This document shows, piece by piece, positions 3,477 to 15,574 of a DNA stretch of 15,574 nucleotides; positions within the stretch are counted from its first letter, which is position 1; each line of letters opens with the position of its first letter. Made by a program: the position numbers and the translations under genes. Under the pieces are notes generated by a model. The model did no database searches, was not told the origin of the DNA, and saw only the letters and a program-made list of their open reading frames with translations. The stretch is from the IMG/VR virus record IMGVR_UViG_2802429244_000016. One strand, 5' to 3'. The DNA is from a virus (taxonomy: Duplodnaviria; Heunggongvirae; Uroviricota; Caudoviricetes).

Positions 3477-3680
3477 ATGGCTAATTACAATTCATTAATT
3501 CGTCTCTCTGAAGTTCAAAGGCGAACTGGTTATAGCAAAGCATGGATTTATCGTCTTATTAGTCAGGGGAGGTTCCCTAAACAGGTAAAAATTGGAAGTC
3601 GGGCTATTGCTTTTGTTGAGTCTGAAATAGATGAATGGATTGAGAAGTGTATATTAGAATCTAGAGACGAGGTGGCCTGA
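3477..3680 (+). CDS. alpA: AlpA-family phage/satellite transcriptional regulator (excisionase-like winged-helix DNA binding)
   Basis: 67-aa protein MANYNSLIRLSEVQRRTGYSKAWIYRLISQGRFPKQVKIGSRAIAFVESEIDEWIE, the classic AlpA motif pattern; positioned just downstream of the P4-type integrase. Confidence 0.85.
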   Translation: MANYNSLIRLSEVQRRTGYSKAWIYRLISQGRFPKQVKIGSRAIAFVESEIDEWIEKCILESRDEVA

Positions 3681-4111
3681 TGGAAAAGAAAAACCGCCCA
3701 TTACAGGCGGCTAATTCAGATATTCGCGTATCTGATGTTACGCCCCTGACAAAATCCCTTCAAGCACCAAAGCGCACACCGAAAAAGCATCGTGCCAGAG
3801 TCTATATGCTGCGTACTGGTATAGAGGGATGGACAGAAAATGACATTCTTCGCTACTGCCGTCTGTCTTCTGGTCGTAACTATGCAACAGAGTTAGAACG
3901 CCAGCTTGGAATCACTCTGGAGCGTATCGACGAAAAGAATCCTGATGGTATCGGAACACACCTTCGCTACCGTTTCTCCTGCCGTGGTGATGTTCTGAAA
4001 GTGATCACTCATATTAACCATCTTGCGAACATAAATGATCACAACGGACTTTCTCAGCAGGAAATTGCCGACATTCTGAAACTCTACCCGGACGCGTTTA
4101 ACGCCGCCTAA
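3680..4111 (+). CDS. Hypothetical protein (143 aa), basic N-terminus, translationally coupled to alpA
   Basis: ATG overlaps the alpA stop (TGATG). Protein starts MEKKNRPLQAANSDIRVSDV; K/R-rich N-terminus (PKRTPKKHRAR). No family recognised. Confidence 0.6.
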   Translation: MEKKNRPLQAANSDIRVSDVTPLTKSLQAPKRTPKKHRARVYMLRTGIEGWTENDILRYCRLSSGRNYATELERQLGITLERIDEKNPDGIGTHLRYRFSCRGDVLKVITHINHLANINDHNGLSQQEIADILKLYPDAFNAA

Positions 4112-4123
4112 CGGAGACTGAAA

Positions 4124-4957
4124 ATGAACATCGAAAAAAGCAGATTAATTTCTGAGGCCGCCCCTCATCTGAACGCCTCTCTGGGCACAATTAACGGTAA
4201 TGAATTTGCCGCAATTGTCCCGGTTATTCCTGGTCATATCGGTGGGCGTGAAACCAATATTGTTAGCGCAAAAGCGTTGCACAAAGCGTTGGGCGTGGGA
4301 AAAGACTTCTCTACATGGATCACTGATCGCATCTCTGAATATGACTTCACCATTGGGCACGATTACTCAGTCCATAAAACTATTTCCCCAAATTTGGGGA
4401 AAAGCCCGAATGGCGCGGCTTACAGCAAGATTAAGCAGTCTGGCAGACCCGGCAAAGACTATCTGTTAAGTGTCGGAATGGCGAAAGAACTGGCAATGAT
4501 CGAACGCAATGATCAGGGTCGCGCTATCCGCCGTTATTTCATCCAGTGCGAGGAAGAATTACAGCGTAGCGTGCCTGAAATCGCCGCCCGCTATCGTCGC
4601 CAGCTAAAAGCCCGTATCAGTGCCGCAAACAACTTTAAGCCAATGTGCGATGCGCTGAATATGGCCCGTGCCGAGATGGGGAAAACGACGCAGCAACACC
4701 ACTACACAAACGAGAGCAATATGATTTCTCGTATCGTTCTTGGTGGGCTAACTGCTAAGCAGTGGGCGCGGATAAATGGCTATTCTGGCGAACCTCGCGA
4801 CCATATGAACGCAGAACAGCTTGAGCACCTCTCATATCTCGAAAGCACCAATATCACGTTAATTGATATGGGCATGGAATATGAGCAGCGCAAAGGAGAA
4901 CTCACCCGCCTGTCGCAACGCTGGCTCGCCAAGCGTCTGGAGGCGCTCAATGTCTAA
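4124..4957 (+). CDS. Phage antirepressor-like protein with AntA-type N-terminal domain
   Basis: 277 aa; GGAG upstream of the ATG. Segment SAKALHKALGVGKDFSTWITDRISEYDFTIGHDYSV resembles the AntA/AntB motif (W-I-x-x-R-I-x-x-Y-x-F-x-x-G-x-D-Y), recalled from memory. Confidence 0.55.
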   Translation: MNIEKSRLISEAAPHLNASLGTINGNEFAAIVPVIPGHIGGRETNIVSAKALHKALGVGKDFSTWITDRISEYDFTIGHDYSVHKTISPNLGKSPNGAAYSKIKQSGRPGKDYLLSVGMAKELAMIERNDQGRAIRRYFIQCEEELQRSVPEIAARYRRQLKARISAANNFKPMCDALNMARAEMGKTTQQHHYTNESNMISRIVLGGLTAKQWARINGYSGEPRDHMNAEQLEHLSYLESTNITLIDMGMEYEQRKGELTRLSQRWLAKRLEALNV

Positions 4958-5132
4958 GCCAACAGGAATACCACAACCTCAAAAACGCTACAAAGATGCC
5001 CACGGAGCACTCGTTACTGTCGAAAGCGTGTCTCACAACCGAGTGACGTTTTATCGCGACGGGTATCAATCGCCATGCGTACAACCGCTGGCGCGCTTCA
5101 TGAAGGAGTTCGCGGAGGTTAACAAATGCTAA
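4950..5132 (+). CDS. Small hypothetical protein (60 aa; DUF4222-like by recollection)
   Basis: ATG at 4950 preceded by GGAGG (4939-4943) and overlapping the upstream stop; MSKPTGIPQPQKRYKDAHGALVTVESVSHNRVTFYRDGYQSPCVQPLARFMKEFAEVNKC. The ORF track's 4863 start lacks an RBS. Confidence 0.55.
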   Translation: MSKPTGIPQPQKRYKDAHGALVTVESVSHNRVTFYRDGYQSPCVQPLARFMKEFAEVNKC

Positions 5133-5563
5133 CCGCCCAGAAGAAGACATTTTCACTGGCTGGCATGTCGCCAAAATCCAGCAATATGACAGCAAAGTCA
5201 GGCATTAATACAGCAGATACAAGCAAAGTTTATCATTTGCTGGTGGTAGGAGCGGATGCCTTAACTATGTCAGAAATCACGGTCGATGGTGTTAGCGTTG
5301 AGAAGGTCAGCGGCTGCGCCAGAGAATTTCTGGTCGTAGATCACCTGTTCTGCTCGTGTAGTGACTCCACAAAAACATTCGTCCACGCGCGTGACGTTAA
5401 CGAAATGAGCGCGATGTACTGTGCTTCTGGTTCTTCCAATAGTGAGTTTTCGGAGTCCATAAAAAAGAGCTTGCCGTTATGCGGCAACACGGTTTATGGT
5501 TATAAGGCACCTCATAAAACGGGTGCCGGGTTTCGCAGCCCGGAAATGTACGAGGCGACACAT

Positions 5564-5584
5564 GACGCGCCGAGCGTCTTTTTT
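5564..5584 (+). terminator. Candidate intrinsic terminator (short GC stem plus T6)
   Basis: GACGC-GCCGA-GCGTC followed by TTTTTT (5579-5584). Stem is only 5 bp, so this is weak. Confidence 0.35.
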
Positions 5585-5594
5585 TGTGCCGTTA

Positions 5595-5632
5595 GCCAGA
5601 CTCACACTTTTTTCAGTGATGTGGTTATAATC
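5595..5632 (+). promoter_or_regulatory. Candidate sigma70 promoter for the small-ORF/primase operon (perfect -10 TATAAT at 5625-5630)
   Basis: GTGATGTGGTTATAATCCGCG; no convincing -35 hexamer (CACACT-like at about 5602-5607). Lies downstream of the candidate terminator and upstream of the structured leader. Confidence 0.35.
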
Positions 5633-5639
5633 CGCGTCG

Positions 5640-5788
5640 CTTGCAAAATTATGGTGGGCTGGACAGGGCAGCCGAAAGGCTGGCCGGTTTCCTTGTACGC
5701 CGGTACTGCGAACTCTGTTCAGTCCACCACCAGCGAGTTTCGCAGCTCCGGTGGTGGGAAGAATTCCCAGTACAAGGAGGCTGCCACA
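5640..5788 (+). ncRNA. Structured 5' leader / candidate regulatory RNA upstream of the primase operon (possible P4 CI-RNA-like immunity element)
   Basis: GNRA hairpin CAGCC-GAAA-GGCTG (5668-5681); 8-bp stem CCACCACC (5723-5730) / GGTGGTGG (5749-5756) presenting loop TTTCGCAG; single-stranded CTGCGAA (5706-5712) complementary to that loop; an upstream hairpin CCGGG-TTTCGCAG-CCCGG (5526-5543) presents the same loop sequence. Confidence 0.4.
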
Positions 5789-5982
5789 TGCTGGCTACTA
5801 CCCCTACCCAAAAACCGCAATTTATCTGGATTATCGCCGCAGTTCGCCGCGATTGCCAGACAATTACCGCCAAAATTCATCATATTGCTGCCGAGTCTGA
5901 ACGCGATGCTCGCCGTTCTCTGGTGCGCGATCACGTCTGCTTTTTTGCTGGTCGTATCCGCATGGAGGTGGCACATGATTAA
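5789..5982 (+). CDS. Hypothetical small protein (64 aa), first gene of the coupled operon
   Basis: Strong RBS AGGAGG (5775-5780) 8 nt before the ATG at 5789; MLATTPTQKPQFIWIIAAVRRDCQTITAKIHHIAAESERDARRSLVRDHVCFFAGRIRMEVAHD. Confidence 0.55.
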
Positions 5983-6193
5983 AACCTACGATGTGCATAT
6001 GGATCCCCTCGAACGCACAAGCCAGATCATCACACTGACAGAGGTGATTAATGACATTCTGGTGAGCAACTCTCCCTCACGAGACGAAAAACTGAAGGCG
6101 TTACTCGCGATATTGGATCTCGCCGTTCGTGACGTTCATTTCCTGCTGGAAGGTGGACAAATGCCATGCAAAACGGGGGCAACCAATGAATAA
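5975..6193 (+). CDS. Hypothetical small protein (72 aa)
   Basis: ATG at 5975 preceded by GGAGG (5964-5968) and overlapping the upstream stop; MIKTYDVHMDPLERTSQIITLTEVINDILVS... The ORF track shows this frame open from 5126, but the upstream part lacks a start context. Confidence 0.5.
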   Translation: MIKTYDVHMDPLERTSQIITLTEVINDILVSNSPSRDEKLKALLAILDLAVRDVHFLLEGGQMPCKTGATNE

Positions 6194-6380
6194 CTCAATT
6201 AATACCCCTCGCCTTACGTCCGCACTTCAATTAATCGAGCAAGCAGCGGCTGTCCTGGTTGCTGTCAGTCTTTCGGCTGAAGAAATGGACGCTGCTGATG
6301 TCGTGGATGCGATTAAAGCGTGCTCATCTTTGGTTAACGATGCCCGTGCAGAGCTGGTAATTCTTGGTGGTGAAAAATGA
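6186..6380 (+). CDS. Hypothetical small protein (64 aa)
   Basis: ATG at 6186 overlaps the upstream stop; MNNSINTPRLTSALQLIEQAAAVLVAVSLSAEEMDAADVVDAIKACSSLVNDARAELVILGGEK. Confidence 0.5.
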   Translation: MNNSINTPRLTSALQLIEQAAAVLVAVSLSAEEMDAADVVDAIKACSSLVNDARAELVILGGEK

Positions 6381-6640
6381 ATATCAACTTAATTTATCGT
6401 CATCCGTGTGAGCTGGAAATTGAATCATTGCTGGGGCGCGAAGAGCCATATCCAGACACATTCACTCCCGCAGATTGCGCGACTGAACGGCTTACCAGAG
6501 CGCGCACAGGTCTGGTTCATGTGATGAATGAGATTATTCCCTCGGTGGGAGGGGAACAGGCGACAGTAATCAATAGCTGGCTACAAAAAGTTACCTCCCT
6601 GATAGATATCAGTTTAATCGATGTGGAGAGTGCGAAATGA
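6377..6640 (+). CDS. Hypothetical small protein (87 aa)
   Basis: ATGA start/stop overlap with the upstream gene; MNINLIYRHPCELEIESLLGREEPYPDTF... Confidence 0.55.
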   Translation: MNINLIYRHPCELEIESLLGREEPYPDTFTPADCATERLTRARTGLVHVMNEIIPSVGGEQATVINSWLQKVTSLIDISLIDVESAK

Positions 6641-6858
6641 CCAACATCCAGCTCATTGAAGCGCAATGTCGCATCGAACAGGTTCAGACTGTTTTAGGGT
6701 TCTGGCTTGAAGGGGCCAGCCCCAGCAACAGAGACAAGTTAATGATTGGCGCGGTTATGTCACTGCTCAATGGCGTACCAGAAGCTATTCAGGAAGCGGA
6801 CGAATTGTTGGGCAAATATGAGTTACAGAATCATTCAGGCGAGGCGAAACATGAATAA
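6637..6858 (+). CDS. Hypothetical small protein (73 aa)
   Basis: ATGA overlap with the upstream gene; MTNIQLIEAQCRIEQVQTVLGFWLEGASPSNRDKLMIGAVMSLLNGVPEAIQEADELLGKYELQNHSGEAKHE. Confidence 0.5.
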   Translation: MTNIQLIEAQCRIEQVQTVLGFWLEGASPSNRDKLMIGAVMSLLNGVPEAIQEADELLGKYELQNHSGEAKHE

Positions 6859-7453
6859 TTTCTTAACTTTCCATGCAGAAGCAACGCCTGACGGCGTAAA
6901 CATCATGTACCGCAGCAACGATGGCATGACAGAACGCGTTGAGGCCGTCTCATATATTGATGCCGTAAATCGTCTGGATGCCGGGGATTATGACGATAAA
7001 CCAGATGAAGGTATGTCAATACATCTCGCTATTGCCGATGGCGGCAACCAGGGATATTTCGATTACACATCACAGCATAACGTCATTATGTGGAGATGGC
7101 TGATCGCCACAGTATTCATGCTGGAAATGAGAGAGGAAAACGGCACTGTCAGCATCATTGATGATACTGGCAATCCTTCCGAAGTGGCTGTTTATTCCAA
7201 CGGCATCGTCGCCATGCCGCTGTATCCAGTAGCAGAGCGCCTCGCTATGGCAAACAACATTGAGGGCGCGATGATAGAACGTTTTGGCATCGAGTCTGGC
7301 ACAGAACGCGCCATCATTTTCTACAGAGCCATGATGGATGTGGAACAAGGAGCACTGACTCCATTTGGTCGTGAAACGCTTGCTGAACTTCACAACAGCT
7401 TTATAGCTGAACTGAATGAAAACGGCATGCCAGCGGAACCAGTGACGCACTGA
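6851..7453 (+). CDS. Hypothetical protein (200 aa)
   Basis: ATG at 6851 overlaps the upstream stop (ATGAATAA); MNNFLTFHAEATPDGVNIMYRSNDGMTERVEAVSYIDAVNRLDAGDYDDKPDEG... The ORF track's 6746 start would overlap the upstream gene in another frame without an RBS. Confidence 0.6.
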   Translation: MNNFLTFHAEATPDGVNIMYRSNDGMTERVEAVSYIDAVNRLDAGDYDDKPDEGMSIHLAIADGGNQGYFDYTSQHNVIMWRWLIATVFMLEMREENGTVSIIDDTGNPSEVAVYSNGIVAMPLYPVAERLAMANNIEGAMIERFGIESGTERAIIFYRAMMDVEQGALTPFGRETLAELHNSFIAELNENGMPAEPVTH

Positions 7454-7463
7454 GGATGGAACC

Positions 7464-7805
7464 ATGATTACTAAAAATTTCCGACTGAATGCGCTGGCAA
7501 ATAAGTATGCGTCGGCACTGTATAACCACATAACCTCCACCAGCGGCGGGGACTATTTCATGGTTGATGCGGACGGCGAAGCCGTCCGTGTGGAAATCGT
7601 CAATGGAGTAAAAGGCGTTCGCAGACTGATCGATAGCTACACACTGGCAGCCATGAAAGTGTTCTACCCGCAGTGGGAAACCGTGGGGATTGAGCTTCTT
7701 GATCGTTGCGTCACTAAGGACGGATTGACTGACGTCGGGCGTGAGATATGGCAAAGCATGGTTAAAGACATGGGCGCAACTGTAGCGGGAGGTTCTCATG
7801 CGTGA
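7464..7805 (+). CDS. Hypothetical protein (113 aa)
   Basis: RBS GAGGATGG before the ATG at 7464; MITKNFRLNALANKYASALYNHITSTSGGDYFMVDADGEAVRVEIVNG... Confidence 0.6.
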   Translation: MITKNFRLNALANKYASALYNHITSTSGGDYFMVDADGEAVRVEIVNGVKGVRRLIDSYTLAAMKVFYPQWETVGIELLDRCVTKDGLTDVGREIWQSMVKDMGATVAGGSHA

Positions 7806-8169
7806 AAATGCAGAAATGGCGCTTAGCTCCGCAATCGGAGAGCAGGTGGCAAAGATTGCTGGTGCTGTGTGGATTCATAACCTTCATTCTACTGGTGAAG
7901 AGAAAATGGCAATTCAGACGCCAGAGGGACGCACCATTACTACATCTCTGAAGCCGTCAGATATTTGTGATCTGATTTGCACATTCATGTACCCAGCAAT
8001 GAGGACTGTCCACGGCGATAAGTGGAAACTTGCGACAACCGCTGAATTTGATATGTGGCTAAACAATGATGGCATGCTGACTGATTACGGAATAACCAAG
8101 TGGCAGATGCTGGTTAGCCATATCGCAAACGCTATAGACCACGTGGGGTACGGTGATGCGAAACATTGA
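7798..8169 (+). CDS. Hypothetical protein (123 aa)
   Basis: RBS GGAGG (7788-7792) then ATG at 7798, overlapping the upstream stop; MRENAEMALSSAIGEQVAKIAGAVWIHNLHSTGEEK... Confidence 0.6.
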   Translation: MRENAEMALSSAIGEQVAKIAGAVWIHNLHSTGEEKMAIQTPEGRTITTSLKPSDICDLICTFMYPAMRTVHGDKWKLATTAEFDMWLNNDGMLTDYGITKWQMLVSHIANAIDHVGYGDAKH

Positions 8170-10912
8170 TCTTATCCGTCAGGTTATCAGTGCGTCTGAA
8201 AACAACTGGCCTCATGTGCTGGGCTGCCTGAACATAAATGTCCCTGACTCTCCGCGCCGTCATGCTCCCTGCCCTGCATGTGGGGGCAAAGATCGATTCC
8301 GGTTCGATGACAACGGGCGCGGTAGCTTCATCTGTAATCAGTGCGGCGCTGGTGATGGGCTGGATTTAATTAAACGCGTAAATAACTGCGACACAACAGA
8401 GGCGGCGCTTCTTGCCGCTGATGTTCTGGGTATTGATTACCGGACAACGGAAACACCAGAAGCCACCAGCCAGAAACGGGAACAACAGGAAACCGAGCGC
8501 CAGCGACGCGAACAGGAGCGCCTGAAAAGGGCAGAGAAGGACGAACAACAAAGACGGGATACGTTTTCCCGTCAGTTTGATGACATGCGCAGAAAGGCTG
8601 TAAACGGCAAATCTGATTATCTGGTTGCGAAAGGGGTAGGTGATTTTACATTCCCCGTGTTGCCCGATGGATCTCTGTTGCTGGCGCTGGTGGATAAATC
8701 CGGCGCAGTAACAGCAGCACAGACTATTACCTCACATGGTGAAAAAAGACTCCTGACAGGTTCAGCAAAGCGAGGGGCATATCACGCCATAAACGCACCA
8801 GAAACAACACAGAGCATCTTAATCGCAGAAGGGCTGGCAACGGCATTATCTGCCCATTTAATTCGTCCAGAGGCGCTGACAGTGGCGGCGATTGATGCCG
8901 GGAACCTGTTATATGTCGCCCAGGTACTGCGGGATAAATTTCCTTCAGCACAAATCATCATTGCTGCGGATAACGACCACAGCGAAGGAAGACAAAACAC
9001 GGGGAGAATAGCAGCAGAAAAGGCAGCTTTATCTGTTTCTGGATGGGTGGCATTACCCCCGACAGATCACAAAGCAGACTGGAATGATTACCACCAAAAA
9101 CACGGCATTAAATGCGCCACAGAAGCGTTCAATAAGTCAATGTACCAACCACAGGGTAATGGCGTGAAACAGGAGCCACAGACCATTGAGGGAAGCGATT
9201 TTAAGGTTATGGATACCGACCCACTGAAACCAAGAATAGAAAGCCGCGAGGATGGTATTTATTGGGTATCTCCGAGAGCTGACAGCCAGAGTGGAGAAAT
9301 CATCAATAACGAAAGCTGGTTATGTTCTCCGTTAAGCGTTATCGGTACTGGCAGAGACGATAAAGACCAGTATCTCATTCTTCGCTGGCTGTCGTTTGGT
9401 TCTGAAACGCCGACAACCGCTGCCATTCCACTGGCTGATATTGGTGAACGTGAAGGATGGCGCACACTTAAAGCTGGTGGGGTAAATGTCACGACCAAAA
9501 GCAGCCTCAGAGCAATACTGGCAGACTGGCTACAACGCAGTGGCTCTCGTGAATTGTGGCGTGTTGCTCATGCCACTGGCTGGCAATGCGGAGCGTACAT
9601 CATGCCTGATGGGGAAATCATCGGAACACCTGAAAATCCTGTGCTGTTCAGCGGGAGAAGCTCAGCCGCAGCCGGATATACCGTCTCAGGGAGCGCGAAA
9701 AGCTGGCGTGATAACGTGGCGCGTCTGGCCTTTGGTAACTATTCAATGATGACCGGGATCGGCGCAGCACTGGCAGCGCCATTGATTGGGCTGGTGGGCG
9801 CTGACGGGTTCGGCATTCATTTCTATGAGCAGTCGAGCGCAGGTAAGACCACCACGGCAAACGTGGCGAGCAGCTTATACGGCAACCCTGATTTACTGCG
9901 GCTGACGTGGTACGGAACCGCGCTGGGGCTGGCAAATGAAGCCGCCGCCCACAATGACGGACTAATGCCGCTTGATGAAGTTGGTCAGGGCGCTGATCCT
10001 GTCAGTGTTTCACAGTCTGCCTATGCGTTATTTAACGGTGTAGGGAAACTGCAAGGTGCTAAAGATGGTGGAAACCGGGATCTAAAACGCTGGCGTACAG
10101 TGGCAATCAGCACCGGAGAAATGGATTTAGAAACATTTATCGCTACTTCCGGGCGAAAAACCAAAGCCGGGCAACTGGTGCGACTGCTGAATATTCCGTT
10201 GAGTAAAGCAGTACGCTTTCACGATTACCAGAACGGAAAACAGCACGCAGACGCACTGAAAGACGCTTACCAGCATCACCACGGCGCAGCCGGGCGTGAG
10301 TGGATTAAATGGCTGGCAGACCACCAGCAACAGGCTATTAAAACTGTTCGTGACTGCGAAAGCAGATGGAGAAGCCTGATTCCATCCGATTATGGTGAGC
10401 AGGTTCACCGTGTAGCCGCGCGATTTGCCATTCTGGAGGCCGCATTGCTGTTAGGCGAGGTTGTAACAGGCTGGGATGCTCAGACATGCCGTGATGCGAT
10501 ACAGCACAGCTATAACGCATGGTTGCGCGAGTTCGGCACAGGTAACAAAGAACATCAGCAGATTATTGAACAAACGGAGGCATTTCTTAATGCCTATGGG
10601 CTTAGCCGTTTTGCACCATTTCCATACAGCCCGGCAGATTTGCCAATCAAAGATTTAGCCGGATACCGTCAGCGTGGAGAACATGACGAAAGCCCAATGA
10701 TTTTCTACACATTCCCGGCCACATTTGAAAAGGAGATCGCATGTGGTTTCAACGCAAAACAGTTTGCTGAAGTGTTGAAAAAAGCCGGGATGCTAACCCC
10801 ACCAAACAGCGGTCGTGGATACCAAAGAAAATCACCACGTATTCAGGGACGACAAATAAACGTTTATGTACTCAATTACCAGCCAGGAGATTACAACTCA
10901 TCTGAAGAATGA
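8153..10912 (+). CDS. Bifunctional DNA primase/helicase, P4 alpha-like (zinc-ribbon + TOPRIM primase N-terminus, P-loop NTPase C-terminus); functionally the pri-rep of a satellite
   Basis: 919 aa. Cys4 zinc ribbon CPACGGKDRFRFDDNGRGSFICNQCG; TOPRIM-like IAEGLATALS and IIIAADNDHSEGRQNTG; Walker A FYEQSSAGKTT. Start is GTG 8153 or ATG 8156, overlapping the upstream gene. Confidence 0.9.
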   Translation: MMRNIDLIRQVISASENNWPHVLGCLNINVPDSPRRHAPCPACGGKDRFRFDDNGRGSFICNQCGAGDGLDLIKRVNNCDTTEAALLAADVLGIDYRTTETPEATSQKREQQETERQRREQERLKRAEKDEQQRRDTFSRQFDDMRRKAVNGKSDYLVAKGVGDFTFPVLPDGSLLLALVDKSGAVTAAQTITSHGEKRLLTGSAKRGAYHAINAPETTQSILIAEGLATALSAHLIRPEALTVAAIDAGNLLYVAQVLRDKFPSAQIIIAADNDHSEGRQNTGRIAAEKAALSVSGWVALPPTDHKADWNDYHQKHGIKCATEAFNKSMYQPQGNGVKQEPQTIEGSDFKVMDTDPLKPRIESREDGIYWVSPRADSQSGEIINNESWLCSPLSVIGTGRDDKDQYLILRWLSFGSETPTTAAIPLADIGEREGWRTLKAGGVNVTTKSSLRAILADWLQRSGSRELWRVAHATGWQCGAYIMPDGEIIGTPENPVLFSGRSSAAAGYTVSGSAKSWRDNVARLAFGNYSMMTGIGAALAAPLIGLVGADGFGIHFYEQSSAGKTTTANVASSLYGNPDLLRLTWYGTALGLANEAAAHNDGLMPLDEVGQGADPVSVSQSAYALFNGVGKLQGAKDGGNRDLKRWRTVAISTGEMDLETFIATSGRKTKAGQLVRLLNIPLSKAVRFHDYQNGKQHADALKDAYQHHHGAAGREWIKWLADHQQQAIKTVRDCESRWRSLIPSDYGEQVHRVAARFAILEAALLLGEVVTGWDAQTCRDAIQHSYNAWLREFGTGNKEHQQIIEQTEAFLNAYGLSRFAPFPYSPADLPIKDLAGYRQRGEHDESPMIFYTFPATFEKEIACGFNAKQFAEVLKKAGMLTPPNSGRGYQRKSPRIQGRQINVYVLNYQPGDYNSSEE

Positions 10913-10938
10913 GCTTCTTCATGTGCGTAGAAAAGGTG

Positions 10939-11048
10939 TTGGTTCAGTTGGTTCAGTTGGCTCAATTTGTAAAGAGTATTGTTTTATAAGGATTTTATTC
11001 TTTTTGTTGAACCAACACTGAACCAACAACACGGTATTTTGAACCAAC
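10939..11048 (+). repeat. Iteron cluster A (ori-like): 3 tandem GTTGGTTCA, AT-rich spacer, 3 inverted TGAACCAAC
   Basis: GTTGGTTCA at 10939-10947 and 10948-10956, GTTGGCTCA at 10957-10965; AT-rich spacer; TGAACCAAC at 11008-11016, 11019-11027 and 11040-11048. Immediately 3' of the primase gene. Confidence 0.7.
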
Positions 11049-11493: not shown

Positions 11494-11673
11494 ATGGCTA
11501 TTTCAGTAAAGCCAGTATTGATAAGTGAGAAGCAAATGGAAGCGATAAAGAAAATTCAGGAAGAGCAGCGTAAAAAATCAGAGGTAGGAGTTGCGCCAAC
11601 GATCCATGAAATTGCTCGGGGATTAATGGATAAGGCGCTGACAATACACGCAAAAATGAAGGTGTCTGCATGA
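11494..11673 (+). CDS. Small hypothetical protein (59 aa), translationally coupled to the 604-aa gene
   Basis: Not in the supplied ORF track (below its length cut-off). RBS AAGGGGG (11482-11488) then ATG at 11494; TATAAT at 11455-11460 upstream; stop TGA overlaps the next ATG (ATGA). MAISVKPVLISEKQMEAIKKIQEEQRKKSEVGVAPTIHEIARGLMDKALTIHAKMKVSA. Confidence 0.5.
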   Translation: MAISVKPVLISEKQMEAIKKIQEEQRKKSEVGVAPTIHEIARGLMDKALTIHAKMKVSA

Positions 11674-13484
11674 TTATCAATGAGTTGGCCTACAAGGTCA
11701 CAATTAAGGCCGATGAATTCCTGAATGGAAAACGGAAAGTAAAAGATGAAGTTAGTAAATTAAACAAAGATCTTTCCAGGGCTGAGAAGGAAAGGTTAAA
11801 GGAACTTGAAAAACAACGGCAGGAAATGGAGAAGTTCAGTAAAAACGCTGTTTCAGCTTTCCGCAACGTGACAACAGCAGCCGCTGGATTTTTGGGAATC
11901 GGCGCTGGGTTGTATGGAATCAAGCAACTTTTTACATCTACCGTCAACGAAATCGTGAGAGCCAGTCAACAGGCCAAGTTTTTCGGTTCTGATGTTAATA
12001 AGATGTTTGGTGTTCAGCGGGGATTTCGTCAGGCTGGTCTTAACGGTGACTCGTTCATTTCATCTTCTGGGAATGCCAGAATGGCTTTGGCAAATATTGC
12101 CGATCCAACTGTTATGGGAGGGCTTACTGGCGCTGCCCAAAATTTGCTGGTTCTTGGCGCTCGCACCGGATTAGATATCAATAAGCTCGGTGACCCAAAC
12201 AAGGCTCTTGCTGAGTTTTCTCGCTATGGCAAGACTCATTCTCAAGAAAACCTGATGCAGGTGATGGCTGCCGCAGGGTTCGATCCGACAGATGCCGCTA
12301 AAATAAAATCAGGGGAACTTAAGCAGCTTGTCGATTCAGAAACAAAGAAATCCCGTATTACCGCACAGCAGGTAAAAGAGCAGGAGAAGGTTGCCGCCAC
12401 TCTTGGTCAACTTGATTCAGAGTTTTCCCGATTAAAGCAAAATTTAGCCATGGCATTTGCTCCTGACGTTATTGACGGAATGAAGGCTTTTGGTTCCTGG
12501 ATTGAGAAACATCATGGCGACATCATTGGCTTTTTCAATGACGCCGGAAATATGACGAAGCAATTCACAAAGGCAGTTGGTGGTGCGGAAGAGGCTCTGA
12601 AACTATTGGCAGCAGCATATGTAGGAAGCAAACTTACAGGCGGCGCCCTTCCTCCATGGTTGGCTGGGTTAATAGCATATGGTTTGTATCTCTACAATGA
12701 CAGGGAAAACATTGAGGGTGCAGCTAAAGGATCGTTTGATTACTCTAAGCGTGAACTTGGAGATACCATGCGCAGCATGGGGTTTGACACCGATTTTGGG
12801 CGTAGGGGAGATGAGATTTATGGCAATAACATTCAGCCAGATATCCCTCTCCCTGACGGAGTAAAGCCAGTAAGCATGGATTCTCTCCTTGACGCCATTC
12901 GTGAGGTGGAATCGAGTGGTGGTAAAAAACTTTATAGCCCGAAAGGTGCTGTTGGTCCGTATCAGTTCATGAAGGATACTGCCATAGCGTACGGGTTAAA
13001 GGTCGGGGATGGGATTGATGAGCGCCTTGATGAGGTGAAATCTCGCGCTGCTGCTGAAAGGTTCATGAGGGATTTGCTAAAGCACTATAAAGGCAATGTT
13101 AACCATGCGCTGATGGCTTACAACTGGGGGATGGGCAATGTAGATAAAAAGTTAAAATACATATCCAGTACCGGGTTTGATTCACCATCATCCAAATACT
13201 GGAACACCTTACCGAAAGAGACGCGAGAATATGTGCCAAAGATTCGCGCAGCTCTTAATGCAAAAGAAAACGAGACGCTGGCTTACTATCAGCAGCAGCA
13301 ACGCATCGCCTCAACACCAAGCCAGACAACATCAAAAATTGACAACAGCCGTAGCAGCAGTACAACTATTGGCACGGTTGTTGTTAACAGTAACCCGACA
13401 ACAGTTGATGCTCTTACCAGAAGTGTCAATCAGCAAGTTAGCCGGGTGTCAACAAACGCGGCATTTTCTAGTGCCGTTAAGTAG
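11670..13484 (+). CDS. Coiled-coil, membrane-associated protein with C-terminal lytic transglycosylase (SLT/lysozyme-like) domain and Q/S/T-rich tail; tape-measure or injection-protein-like architecture
   Basis: 604 aa. N-terminal K/E-rich coiled coil (about aa 20-60); hydrophobic segments AAAGFLGIGAGLYGI and ALPPWLAGLIAYGLYLY; SLT signature about aa 404-490 (nt about 12879-13140): DAIREVESSGG, GAVGPYQFM, ALMAYNWGMGN. Tail YYQQQQRIASTPSQTTSKIDNSRSSSTT. Confidence 0.8.
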   Translation: MIINELAYKVTIKADEFLNGKRKVKDEVSKLNKDLSRAEKERLKELEKQRQEMEKFSKNAVSAFRNVTTAAAGFLGIGAGLYGIKQLFTSTVNEIVRASQQAKFFGSDVNKMFGVQRGFRQAGLNGDSFISSSGNARMALANIADPTVMGGLTGAAQNLLVLGARTGLDINKLGDPNKALAEFSRYGKTHSQENLMQVMAAAGFDPTDAAKIKSGELKQLVDSETKKSRITAQQVKEQEKVAATLGQLDSEFSRLKQNLAMAFAPDVIDGMKAFGSWIEKHHGDIIGFFNDAGNMTKQFTKAVGGAEEALKLLAAAYVGSKLTGGALPPWLAGLIAYGLYLYNDRENIEGAAKGSFDYSKRELGDTMRSMGFDTDFGRRGDEIYGNNIQPDIPLPDGVKPVSMDSLLDAIREVESSGGKKLYSPKGAVGPYQFMKDTAIAYGLKVGDGIDERLDEVKSRAAAERFMRDLLKHYKGNVNHALMAYNWGMGNVDKKLKYISSTGFDSPSSKYWNTLPKETREYVPKIRAALNAKENETLAYYQQQQRIASTPSQTTSKIDNSRSSSTTIGTVVVNSNPTTVDALTRSVNQQVSRVSTNAAFSSAVK

Positions 13485-15128: not shown

Positions 15129-15250
15129 TGTTGGTTCAGAGCTGGGCTGTGTTGGTTCAAAATGAGTTGATGTTGGTTCAATATTTTAGAAAAAACACAA
15201 TAAAAACAACGATCTTTACAAATTGAACCAACTGAACCAACTGAACCAAC
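15129..15250 (+). repeat. Iteron cluster B (crr-like), inverted copy of cluster A
   Basis: GTTGGTTCA at 15129-15137, 15151-15159 and 15172-15180; AT-rich spacer; tandem TGAACCAAC at 15224-15232, 15233-15241 and 15242-15250. Its reverse complement aligns with 10935-11050, including the spacer word CAATTTGTAAAGA. Confidence 0.7.
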
Positions 15251-15286: not shown

Positions 15287-15574
15287 ATGATAAGGGACAG
15301 GAAAGCTGAAGAGCTGGAGTCAAAAGGGCTATACCGGAGAGCTGCCGCACGATGGGCAGAAGTCATGATGCTGGCAGATGGCGATAAAGAACGTGAACAT
15401 GCAGCAAACAGACGCTCTGAATGTATCCGTAAGGCGGCACGCCCACCAGCAACTACAGACAGATTCGGAGATTTAAGACAGGCAGTTAAGCGGACTCATT
15501 CGGCTCTTGGTATGGATGAGGAAGCGAGAGGGTACTTCAGGCGTTATCGCGATAAAGATTGCCAGAGACAGTAA
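15287..15574 (+). CDS. PerC-family transcriptional regulator-like protein (95 aa)
   Basis: RBS GAGAGG before the ATG; MIRDRKAEELESKGLYRRAAARWAEVMMLADGDKERE... matches the conserved PerC/Pch N-terminal pattern as I recall it; the stop TAA is the last codon of the window. Confidence 0.65.
   Translation: MIRDRKAEELESKGLYRRAAARWAEVMMLADGDKEREHAANRRSECIRKAARPPATTDRFGDLRQAVKRTHSALGMDEEARGYFRRYRDKDCQRQ

Follow-up and report, generated by a model that had tools for sequence, protein, structure and literature searches.

The replication operon of an EcCIMP1-type chromosomal island probably shares the architecture and control of the P4 left operon

Satellite phage P4 has a left operon in which the genes kil, epsilon, orf151, cnr and alpha are preceded by two RNAs. 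RNAs of the isrK family are structural homologues of P4 seqA and those of the C4 family are homologues of the P4 CI immunity RNA (PMC4825925; PMC10111431), while C4/isrK matches are already known from Gram-negative phage-inducible chromosomal islands (PICIs; PMC10111431). The passages of PMC10111431 that summarize Forti et al. (1999) describe Kil of P4 as a truncated Eta; they state that full-length Eta is translated solely from the upstream late promoter, that it is translationally coupled to the alpA homologue and that its translation prevents termination. Among PICIs, EcCIMP1 was described in Escherichia coli MP1 (Pick, Stadel and Raivio, ISME J 2025, PMC11773190). According to the parts of that paper used here, the island is induced and transduced by phage Kapi1, it requires alpA, and its excision, replication and transfer were shown experimentally to depend on Kapi1 as the helper. 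The same parts mention no isrK/C4 switch and assign no function to small open reading frames (ORFs). Here we present the analysis of a 15,574-nucleotide (nt) stretch of viral DNA (IMG/VR record IMGVR_UViG_2802429244_000016; hereafter the window), focusing on a run of small ORFs that ends in a primase/helicase gene at position 10,912, and on the RNA genes just ahead of it.

This run is most probably the replication ("left") operon of an EcCIMP1-type PICI, matching the P4 left operon in both architecture and regulation, a reading to which we give a probability of about 80%. Judged by its sequence, the operon carries the features that define a P4 left operon, with the exception of the in-frame nesting of kil and eta. 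Reading of the ORFs revealed a single same-strand chain at 5788–10912, consisting of eight small ORFs of 64–200 amino acids (aa), named O1 to O8, and the primase/helicase gene. All of them are on the + strand: O1 (5788–5982, 64 aa, Kil/Icd-like), O2 (5975–6193, 72 aa), O3 (6186–6380, 64 aa), O4 (6377–6640, 87 aa), O5 (6637–6858, 73 aa), O6 (6851–7453, 200 aa), O7 (7464–7805, 113 aa), O8 (7798–8169, 123 aa) and the primase/helicase gene, which runs from an ATG at 8156 (with a GTG at 8153) to 10912 and encodes 918 aa. An initial annotation of this DNA had proposed the same chain of eight small ORFs ahead of the primase, and rightly described it as a translationally coupled operon of a satellite; its end coordinate stands, whereas its start at 5789 is one base off. 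The annotation had also assigned ATGA-type junctions to seven sites. Seven of the eight junctions do overlap, but the literal 4-nt ATGA is present at only two of them, 6377 and 6637. Four others are 8-nt overlaps, located at 5975 (ATGATTAA), at 6186 and 6851 (both ATGAATAA) and at 7798 (ATGCGTGA), and the one between O8 and the primase (8153/8156) measures 14–17 nt. The remaining junction, between O6 and O7, is a 10-nt gap before 7464 that carries GAGGATGG.

Several lines of evidence support the reality of the chain. Allowing ORFs of at least 60 aa and junctions from −20 to +15 nt, the longest chain found here had eight members, while among 300 dinucleotide-preserving shuffles the longest chain was 1 in 226, 2 in 67, 3 in six and 4 in one. 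No terminator-like or promoter-like sites were found on the + strand between 5790 and 8153. The RefSeq annotation of E. coli A20 and MP1 includes the same ORFs, and exact copies of all eight small proteins exist in public collections, where several are encoded on 1000 contigs or more. The initial annotation would have been refuted by a lack of intact frames in related elements; the ORFs proved to be conserved there, and all eight are intact wherever present, including every E. coli copy that was read. The ratio of non-synonymous to synonymous substitution rates (dN/dS) within E. coli was informative for O2, O5, O6 and O7 alone (0.13, 0.09, 0.32 and 0.21, respectively, all below 1), as O1, O3, O4 and O8 have too few changes. 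For a wider comparison, 77 loci encoding relatives of the primase were collected from species-representative genomes. Overlaps of 4, 8 and 1 nt predominate among the junctions across the family, and gene order is kept between genera, namely Icd, variable small ORFs, the O4, O5, O6 and O7 families, and the primase. Minimal elements hold in this chain nothing more than Icd, one 72-aa ORF and the primase.

Directly upstream of O1 lies an RNA switch that the initial annotation had overlooked. The first RNA is an isrK or seqA-type leader at 5507–5584 (+ strand; Rfam RF01394, 69 bits where the gathering score is 50), which ends in an intrinsic terminator detected by the terminator scan (stem at 5564–5578 followed by a run of seven T). 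The seqA site, complementary to the C4 loop, is located within it at 5547–5555 (+ strand). The second is a C4 or CI-type antisense immunity RNA at 5647–5734 (+ strand; RF01695, 81.1 bits, the gathering score being 45), with a predicted fold of two hairpins, the loop of the second being seqB (5688–5699). A sub-threshold match to the family c4-a1b1 was also recorded at 5494–5546. The third site, seqC, is located at 5770–5780 (+ strand; GTACAAGGAGG) and includes the Shine-Dalgarno sequence AAGGAGG of O1, whose ATG is at 5788; complementarity of the C4 loop extends over 14 nt, 5770–5783, AAGGAGG included. As for transcription, a candidate PLE-like promoter can be proposed at 5471–5499 on the + strand (TTGCCG, 17 nt, TATGGT) from the sequence and its conservation in the alignment, and it would place the transcription start near 5507; the consensus promoter scan did not report it. 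A perfect TATAAT at 5626–5631 (+ strand), between the isrK terminator and C4, may be a second promoter, though without a good −35 element. The segment of about 40 nt around it is present in 17 of 22 aligned loci (missing from L006, L013, L008, L011 and L066), most of which retain TATAAT or a near-match.

Comparative analysis of the three sites was performed on an alignment of the isrK-to-O1 region. Homologues of C4 were found in 23 of the 77 loci, and after addition of the window and removal of duplicates 22 distinct sequences remained; this set is a subset of the C4-bearing relatives, because the single-sequence nhmmer search missed C4 copies that Rfam finds. Between the loop and seqC, 90.5% of the alignment cells were paired and 7 of 11 pairs showed compensatory changes, with a covariation score of 0.63 against 0.05–0.16 in slid controls. 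Between the loop and seqA the respective values were 91.4%, 8 of 9 pairs, and 0.86 against 0.08–0.19. None of 500 shuffles reached either score, and paired cells made up about 91% at the true sites versus 34–52% in the slid controls. At least 11 specificity sequences occur among the loci, while the neighbouring GGAGGCTGCC is almost invariant. P4 served as the positive control: its loop UCCUGUGAA pairs with UUCACAGGA, directly 5' of GGAGGCUGCCAUCAUG, the start of kil, and its seqB occupies the same loop positions as here. The covarying sites thus provide direct comparative evidence, at the level of sequence, that the ribosome-binding site of O1 is a conserved target of the C4-type RNA.

The same region is crossed by a long frame that ties the operon to the genes upstream. 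These are, all on the + strand, alpA (3477–3680; Pfam Phage_AlpA, E-value = 7e-20), a 143-aa ORF (orf143, 3680–4111), a gene for an AntA-domain protein (4124–4957; Pfam AntA, 1e-21) and a DUF4222 gene (4950–5132; 4e-25), with junctions of −1, +12 and −8 nt; EcCIMP1 carries the same genes. An eta-like ORF of 355 codons starts at 5126 (+ strand) with an ATG overlapping the stop codon of the DUF4222 gene (ATGCTAA), runs through isrK, C4 and seqC, passes over the whole of O1 in a different frame and ends at 6193 as O2, which doubles as its C-terminal end. The coupled chain therefore really begins at alpA (3477), well upstream of the 5789 given in the initial annotation. Each of the 22 distinct loci has a single + frame that stays open across the RNA genes, with a length of 188–385 codons, whereas the other + frames reach 17–120 codons and minus-strand frames have a median of 75. 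It starts with ATG in 21 loci and GTG in one, and its start overlaps the stop of an upstream ORF (at least 50 codons) by 1–8 nt in 21 loci, being 4 nt downstream in the other. The equivalent frame of P4 has 217 codons (8821–8168). The possibility that the ORF at 5126 represents a novel "ribosome bridge" was considered and rejected, since this is the known eta principle of P4 (PMC10111431).

The relation of the long frame to kil varies among the loci. In 17 of the 22 it is in frame with icd and ends at the end of icd; in four (the window, L044, L032 and L016) it ends with an O2 homologue, and in L007 at a different small ORF. The window is thus a variant with kil out of frame relative to the eta-like ORF, and about 62 codons at 5788–5974 are open in two frames, that of O1 and that of the eta-like ORF. 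The same double-open arrangement is found in Leclercia (L032), Pluralibacter (L016) and Symbiopectobacterium (L044).

Pfam PF10554 (Phage_ASH) matches aa 124–232 of the eta-like ORF, which corresponds to nt 5495–5821. What this family models, in the window as in P4 (L001, 8330–8521), is a conceptual translation of the region of isrK and C4, while the epsilon family of P4 is PF25738. The RefSeq name "ash family protein", often flagged as a pseudogene, stems from PF10554-type matches, and PF10554 has served as the epsilon marker in a survey of P4-like satellites (PMC8628076). It should be regarded as an annotation trap, as it reports the RNA region translated in an eta-type frame and not an epsilon protein.

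The two ends of the operon have recognizable homologues. O1 matches the Icd-like family NF033153 of NCBIfam (E-value = 8e-20), belongs to phrog_1743 and phrog_6928, both common to P4 kil, and aligns by hhalign (98.8%) with the C-terminal part of the annotated "cI" ORF of P4, which is the kil region; by these similarities it is a Kil/Icd homologue. The primase/helicase has zinc ribbon, Toprim and DUF927 domains (Pfam DUF927, 3.5e-47; Zn_Ribbon_Prim, 2.8e-15; Toprim_3, 6e-15) and matches phrog_1139 (E-value = 7e-178). Its N-terminal 360 aa are 33% identical to P4 alpha, while its helicase half, a DUF927, belongs to a different family from that of alpha. Directly after its stop codon, a first cluster of iterons (10938–11048, the candidate ori/crr) comprises three GTTGGTTCA (the third copy being GTTGGCTCA), an AT-rich spacer and three inverted TGAACCAAC. 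A second cluster at 15130–15250, 4.2 kb downstream and just before the PerC gene, consists of three − strand copies spaced by 21 nt together with three + strand copies in tandem. Altogether the 9-mer TGAACCAAC is present in 12 copies in the two clusters and in both orientations, one copy with a single mismatch. Across the window it had 15 matches with at most one mismatch versus a mean of 3.9 in shuffled sequence, and none of 200 shuffles reached 15. The clusters probably constitute the replication origin and resemble the crr/ori pair of P4.

Between these ends, O6 is the most widespread small ORF (33 of the 77 loci; phrog_1515, E-value = 6e-47) and in at least 12 loci its homologue is located directly upstream of the primase gene. 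Compared with P4 Cnr (ORF106, DUF5375), which controls the plasmid copy number of P4 (PMC8628076), it scored 79.6% in hhalign with 25 sequences, and 90.9% (E-value = 1.2e-6, over Cnr residues 8–101) with a 66-sequence alignment obtained by exhaustive search of the representatives. Two distant short relatives of O6 also gave sub-threshold DUF5375 matches. O6 is best described as a probable Cnr-like replication regulator with an N-terminal extension, an additional region of about 75 residues relative to Cnr. An AlphaFold model of O6 built on a 41-sequence alignment was unusable (predicted local distance difference test score, pLDDT, 44.6). The initial annotation had seen no obvious domain in any of the eight small proteins, which does not hold for O1 nor, as a probable remote relative of Cnr, for O6, but does stand for O2–O5, which had no informative matches in Pfam, NCBIfam, PHROG and PADLOC-type profile searches. 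When the small-ORF families were compared with all P4 proteins by BLAST and hhalign, the links O1–kil and O6–Cnr were the only ones.

Combining the above with what is known for P4, the following scheme can be proposed. In the quiescent state, the candidate promoter at about 5471–5499 would produce the short isrK/seqA leader, and the C4/CI-type RNA would come either from processed read-through transcripts or from transcription that starts at a second promoter. Its loop (seqB) would pair with seqA of the leader and with seqC over the ribosome-binding site of O1. With O1 blocked, the downstream cistrons would also be silent, because ribosomes would be handed on at the overlapping stop and start codons; the naked RNA would be terminated prematurely and the replication genes would stay off. 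Upon helper-phage induction, AlpA-dependent transcription would come in from upstream, and ribosomes translating the DUF4222-coupled eta-like ORF (5126–6193) would pass through the isrK terminator, C4 and seqC. The blocked ribosome-binding site would thereby be bypassed, and coupling would relay expression to O3–O8 and to the primase/helicase, which could then fire the iteron origin just downstream. O6 most likely modulates the primase in a Cnr-like manner and tunes the initiator, while O7/O8 and O2–O5 may be variable accessory proteins. The translational block, the premature termination, the Eta-like bypass, the AlpA dependence and the function of O6 are what we infer by analogy.

A number of points weigh against this scheme. 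Termination, its Rho dependence and the bypass are extrapolated to this element from P4. O1 (5788) is not nested in frame in the eta-like ORF (5126), unlike kil in P4; the mismatch is due to a 2-nt difference near the start of O1, and with kil out of frame the P4 scheme may not hold here in every detail. For the N-terminal third of the eta-like ORF, other genera have no homologue, and this part is only weakly constrained (dN/dS of about 0.3–0.8). This third (5126–5494) is also the most variable stretch among the E. coli copies, at 93–98% identity versus 98–100% for its neighbours, and has neither indels nor stop codons among them. The lack of homologues together with the weak constraint suggests that what counts is primarily the act of translating the frame, and less the protein made from it. 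Similarity of O6 to Cnr lies under the Pfam threshold, with no Pfam match for O6 at E-values up to 1, and the two proteins belong to different PHROG families. Finally, when eight additional related loci were scanned with Rfam, five had neither C4 nor isrK above the gathering score, so that not every primase of this family is preceded by the RNA switch.

It could also be that at least one of O2–O8 acts on the helper phage, by derepression, interference or superinfection immunity, and not on replication of the island. This idea, close to the initial annotation, which had placed helper-interference or derepression factors among the small early proteins, seems to us unlikely, and direct support for it was not found. 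Position and variability speak for it. The helper derepressor epsilon of P4 occupies the equivalent slot right after kil, and the slot between Icd and primase is a mosaic of 19 families in 23 loci. O4–O7 diverge faster than the primase (30–65% versus 70–81% identity), and O7 and O8 are gained or lost as a block, being absent together from some E. coli copies. Moreover, EcCIMP1 confers immunity to superinfection by Kapi1, which has been assigned to no gene, and its authors detected none of the known defence systems (PMC11773190). On the other side, hhalign against epsilon (PF25738) stayed below 20% for every small-ORF family with no match to the profile, the PF10554 match being confined to the translated isrK/C4 region, and no counterpart of ORF151 was found by BLAST or hhalign. 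PADLOC profiles gave nothing credible for the small ORFs, only two marginal CARF matches for O3 at an E-value of about 0.008. The largest and most widespread of these proteins, O6, resembles Cnr, and the likeness of O1 and O6 to known families appears to point to cell-division and replication control. A conventional antirepressor-type gene already exists upstream (4124–4957), and as a helper derepressor its AntA/AntB-domain product is a better and more conventional candidate than the proteins of the small ORFs. Lastly, the similarities between EcCIMP1 and Kapi1 that the same parts of PMC11773190 report (the integrase, an excisionase and two morphogenesis-like proteins) are all outside this operon.

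The characteristics of the individual proteins bear on the same question. O2 belongs to family F9 (hhalign 99.3%) and has homologues in 4 of the 77 loci, those in Leclercia, Pluralibacter and Symbiopectobacterium being 41–45% identical and at the same position. O3 is rare outside Escherichia (2 of 77 loci), is intact in all E. coli loci read and shows five synonymous and no non-synonymous changes. The O4 family is present in 18 of the 77 loci and that of O5 (phrog_20558, E-value = 3e-9) in 19. O7 is a conserved helical protein with a predicted beta-hairpin, modelled by AlphaFold with confidence (pLDDT 92); a fold search with the model found no convincing structural neighbour, and the O6 and O7 family profiles had no meaningful matches among solved structures. 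A confident predicted fold with no known relative would suit an effector. O7 and O8, the latter found in 2 of 77 loci, are probable paralogues, as their families align by hhalign (74%, E-value = 2.8e-5) and have the motif G-LTD-G---WQ in common. Rather doubtfully, O2–O5 and the O7/O8 pair can be proposed as helper-directed effectors, at least one of them causing the immunity of EcCIMP1 to Kapi1 superinfection. Their release would then be tied to the immunity type of the island, because the genes sit behind a C4-gated ribosome-binding site, with at least 11 covarying seqA/B/C variants among the relatives. Small proteins acting on the helper phage would be the interesting part, if true.

That the nine genes form a self-contained operon, driven by its own promoter just upstream of 5789 and independent of the upstream genes, is improbable. 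Such an operon could draw on the strong Shine-Dalgarno sequence of O1 and the perfect TATAAT at 5626–5631, and the isrK terminator (5564–5585) could insulate it from upstream transcription. Yet the DUF4222-coupled frame of 355 codons crosses the terminator, both RNAs and O1, with the same arrangement in 22 of 22 relatives and in P4; late, immunity-insensitive expression in P4 comes from upstream via eta (PMC10111431), and mobilization of EcCIMP1 requires the upstream alpA (PMC11773190). Least probable is that some small ORFs, especially O2, O3 and O8, are chance open frames kept by linkage: their rarity among the 77 loci, the few E. coli substitutions by which selection on O3 and O8 can be judged and the missing annotation of O2 in some RefSeq genomes are outweighed by a chain far exceeding that of shuffled sequence, starts overlapping the preceding stops at seven of eight junctions, intact frames in every E. 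coli copy read, the substitution patterns of O2 and O3, the same-position homologues of O2 in three other genera and the probable paralogy of O8 to the well-conserved O7.

The left-operon reading also agrees with the surroundings of the locus. The left end of the window lies within proA, and tRNA-Thr(CGT) comes next at 1370–1445, where the attachment (att) core TCCTATTATC (1429–1438) is the same as in EcCIMP1. A tyrosine integrase (1611–2825) and then alpA follow on the same strand beside the tRNA. Positions 5400–8200 (2801 nt) are 98.5% identical to E. coli MP1, in which the island is EcCIMP1, and are present at 80% coverage or more in 258 of 5426 complete E. coli genomes. The element, a satellite integrated at tRNA-Thr, belongs to the EcCIMP1 lineage of PICIs. 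The SatelliteFinder definition of a P4-like satellite (int, psu, delta, sid, alpA, epsilon, alpha) does not apply to it, because it lacks psu, sid, delta and epsilon and its helicase domain comes from another family; psu, sid and delta had no Pfam matches among the ORFs of the window, which stops short of the right end of the element, and none is annotated in EcCIMP1. After the primase, cargo includes a 604-aa protein with a lytic transglycosylase (SLT) domain at 11670–13484. A PerC-family regulator starts at 15287 and runs to the end of the window (15574); PerC is colour-coded as a virulence gene in PMC11773190, which also reports a putative repressor of virulence-gene expression on the island.

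Some further observations concern the annotation and distribution of these elements. The RefSeq name given to O4, "nicotinic acetylcholine receptor subunit beta", is spurious, as is "ubiquinol-cytochrome C reductase" for a small ORF of strain PSS-13 (L084, 1970–2284). The int-alpA RNA of Rfam (RF02996) is located between integrase and alpA in seven of eight related loci scanned (L004, L019, L020, L022, L024, L040 and L065), and was not detected in the window even at E-values up to 0.1. The O7 gene matches the record of Elizabethkingia phage EKP1 with 68% nucleotide identity, and a complete enterobacterial-type copy of the island (primase 78% identical) is found on a contig labelled Chryseobacterium sp. 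18061 (L005). These Chryseobacterium and Elizabethkingia occurrences could represent contamination, misassignment or wide transfer.

The analysis gives the left half of an island that is common in E. coli a coherent and testable reading. Beyond the C4 and isrK matches known in PICIs, its new elements are the covariation evidence with the range of specificity variants, the probable link between O6 and Cnr, the O7/O8 pair and the out-of-frame eta/kil variant. In comparison with known systems, EcCIMP1 (L085) agrees with the window in the insertion at tRNA-Thr next to proA and in the gene set from integrase to primase. After the primase they differ, as here a 59-aa ORF and the 604-aa SLT-domain protein follow, while EcCIMP1 has DUF2824, a DNA-ejection protein and a 907-aa transglycosylase.

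The immI region of P1 and P7 (c4, icd, ant) likewise has a C4-family RNA directly upstream of an icd-like gene, and the P1-like phages D6 and RCS47 match 5490–5830 at about 68–69% nucleotide identity. P1, however, controls a downstream antirepressor, ant, whereas here the replication genes would be controlled and the Ant-type gene is upstream; no antirepressor gene was found downstream of icd, where O2–O8 and the primase follow, the AntA gene being located at 4124–4957. The isrK locus of Salmonella Gifsy-1 (isrK, orf45, anrP) also has an isrK-family leader with a leaky terminator and a processed downstream RNA (Hershko-Shalev et al., 2016, PMC4825925), and its downstream translation is controlled through coupling (PMC4825925), but its targets, in place of a replication operon, are an activator resembling antirepressors and the toxic antiterminator AntQ.

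P4 differs in having epsilon and ORF151, which have no homologue here, three small ORFs after kil where the window has seven, and psu, sid and delta, found neither in the window nor in EcCIMP1. The helicase half here is a DUF927, the eta-like ORF is coupled to the DUF4222 gene of the alpA–antA cluster and not directly to the AlpA homologue, and kil is out of frame with this ORF, which ends as O2. What the two left operons have in common is, in the same order and on the same strand, an isrK-type leader, a C4/CI RNA, a Kil/Icd gene with seqC at its ribosome-binding site, overlapping small ORFs and a primase/helicase. An eta-like ORF spanning the RNA genes, 8-nt stop/start overlaps, iteron clusters near the primase gene and, in the window, a probable relative of Cnr complete the likeness. 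Even though it lacks the capsid-hijacking genes of P4, this PICI lineage would accordingly take its place within the P4 regulatory paradigm of RNA immunity, eta-type bypass and a Cnr-like regulator.

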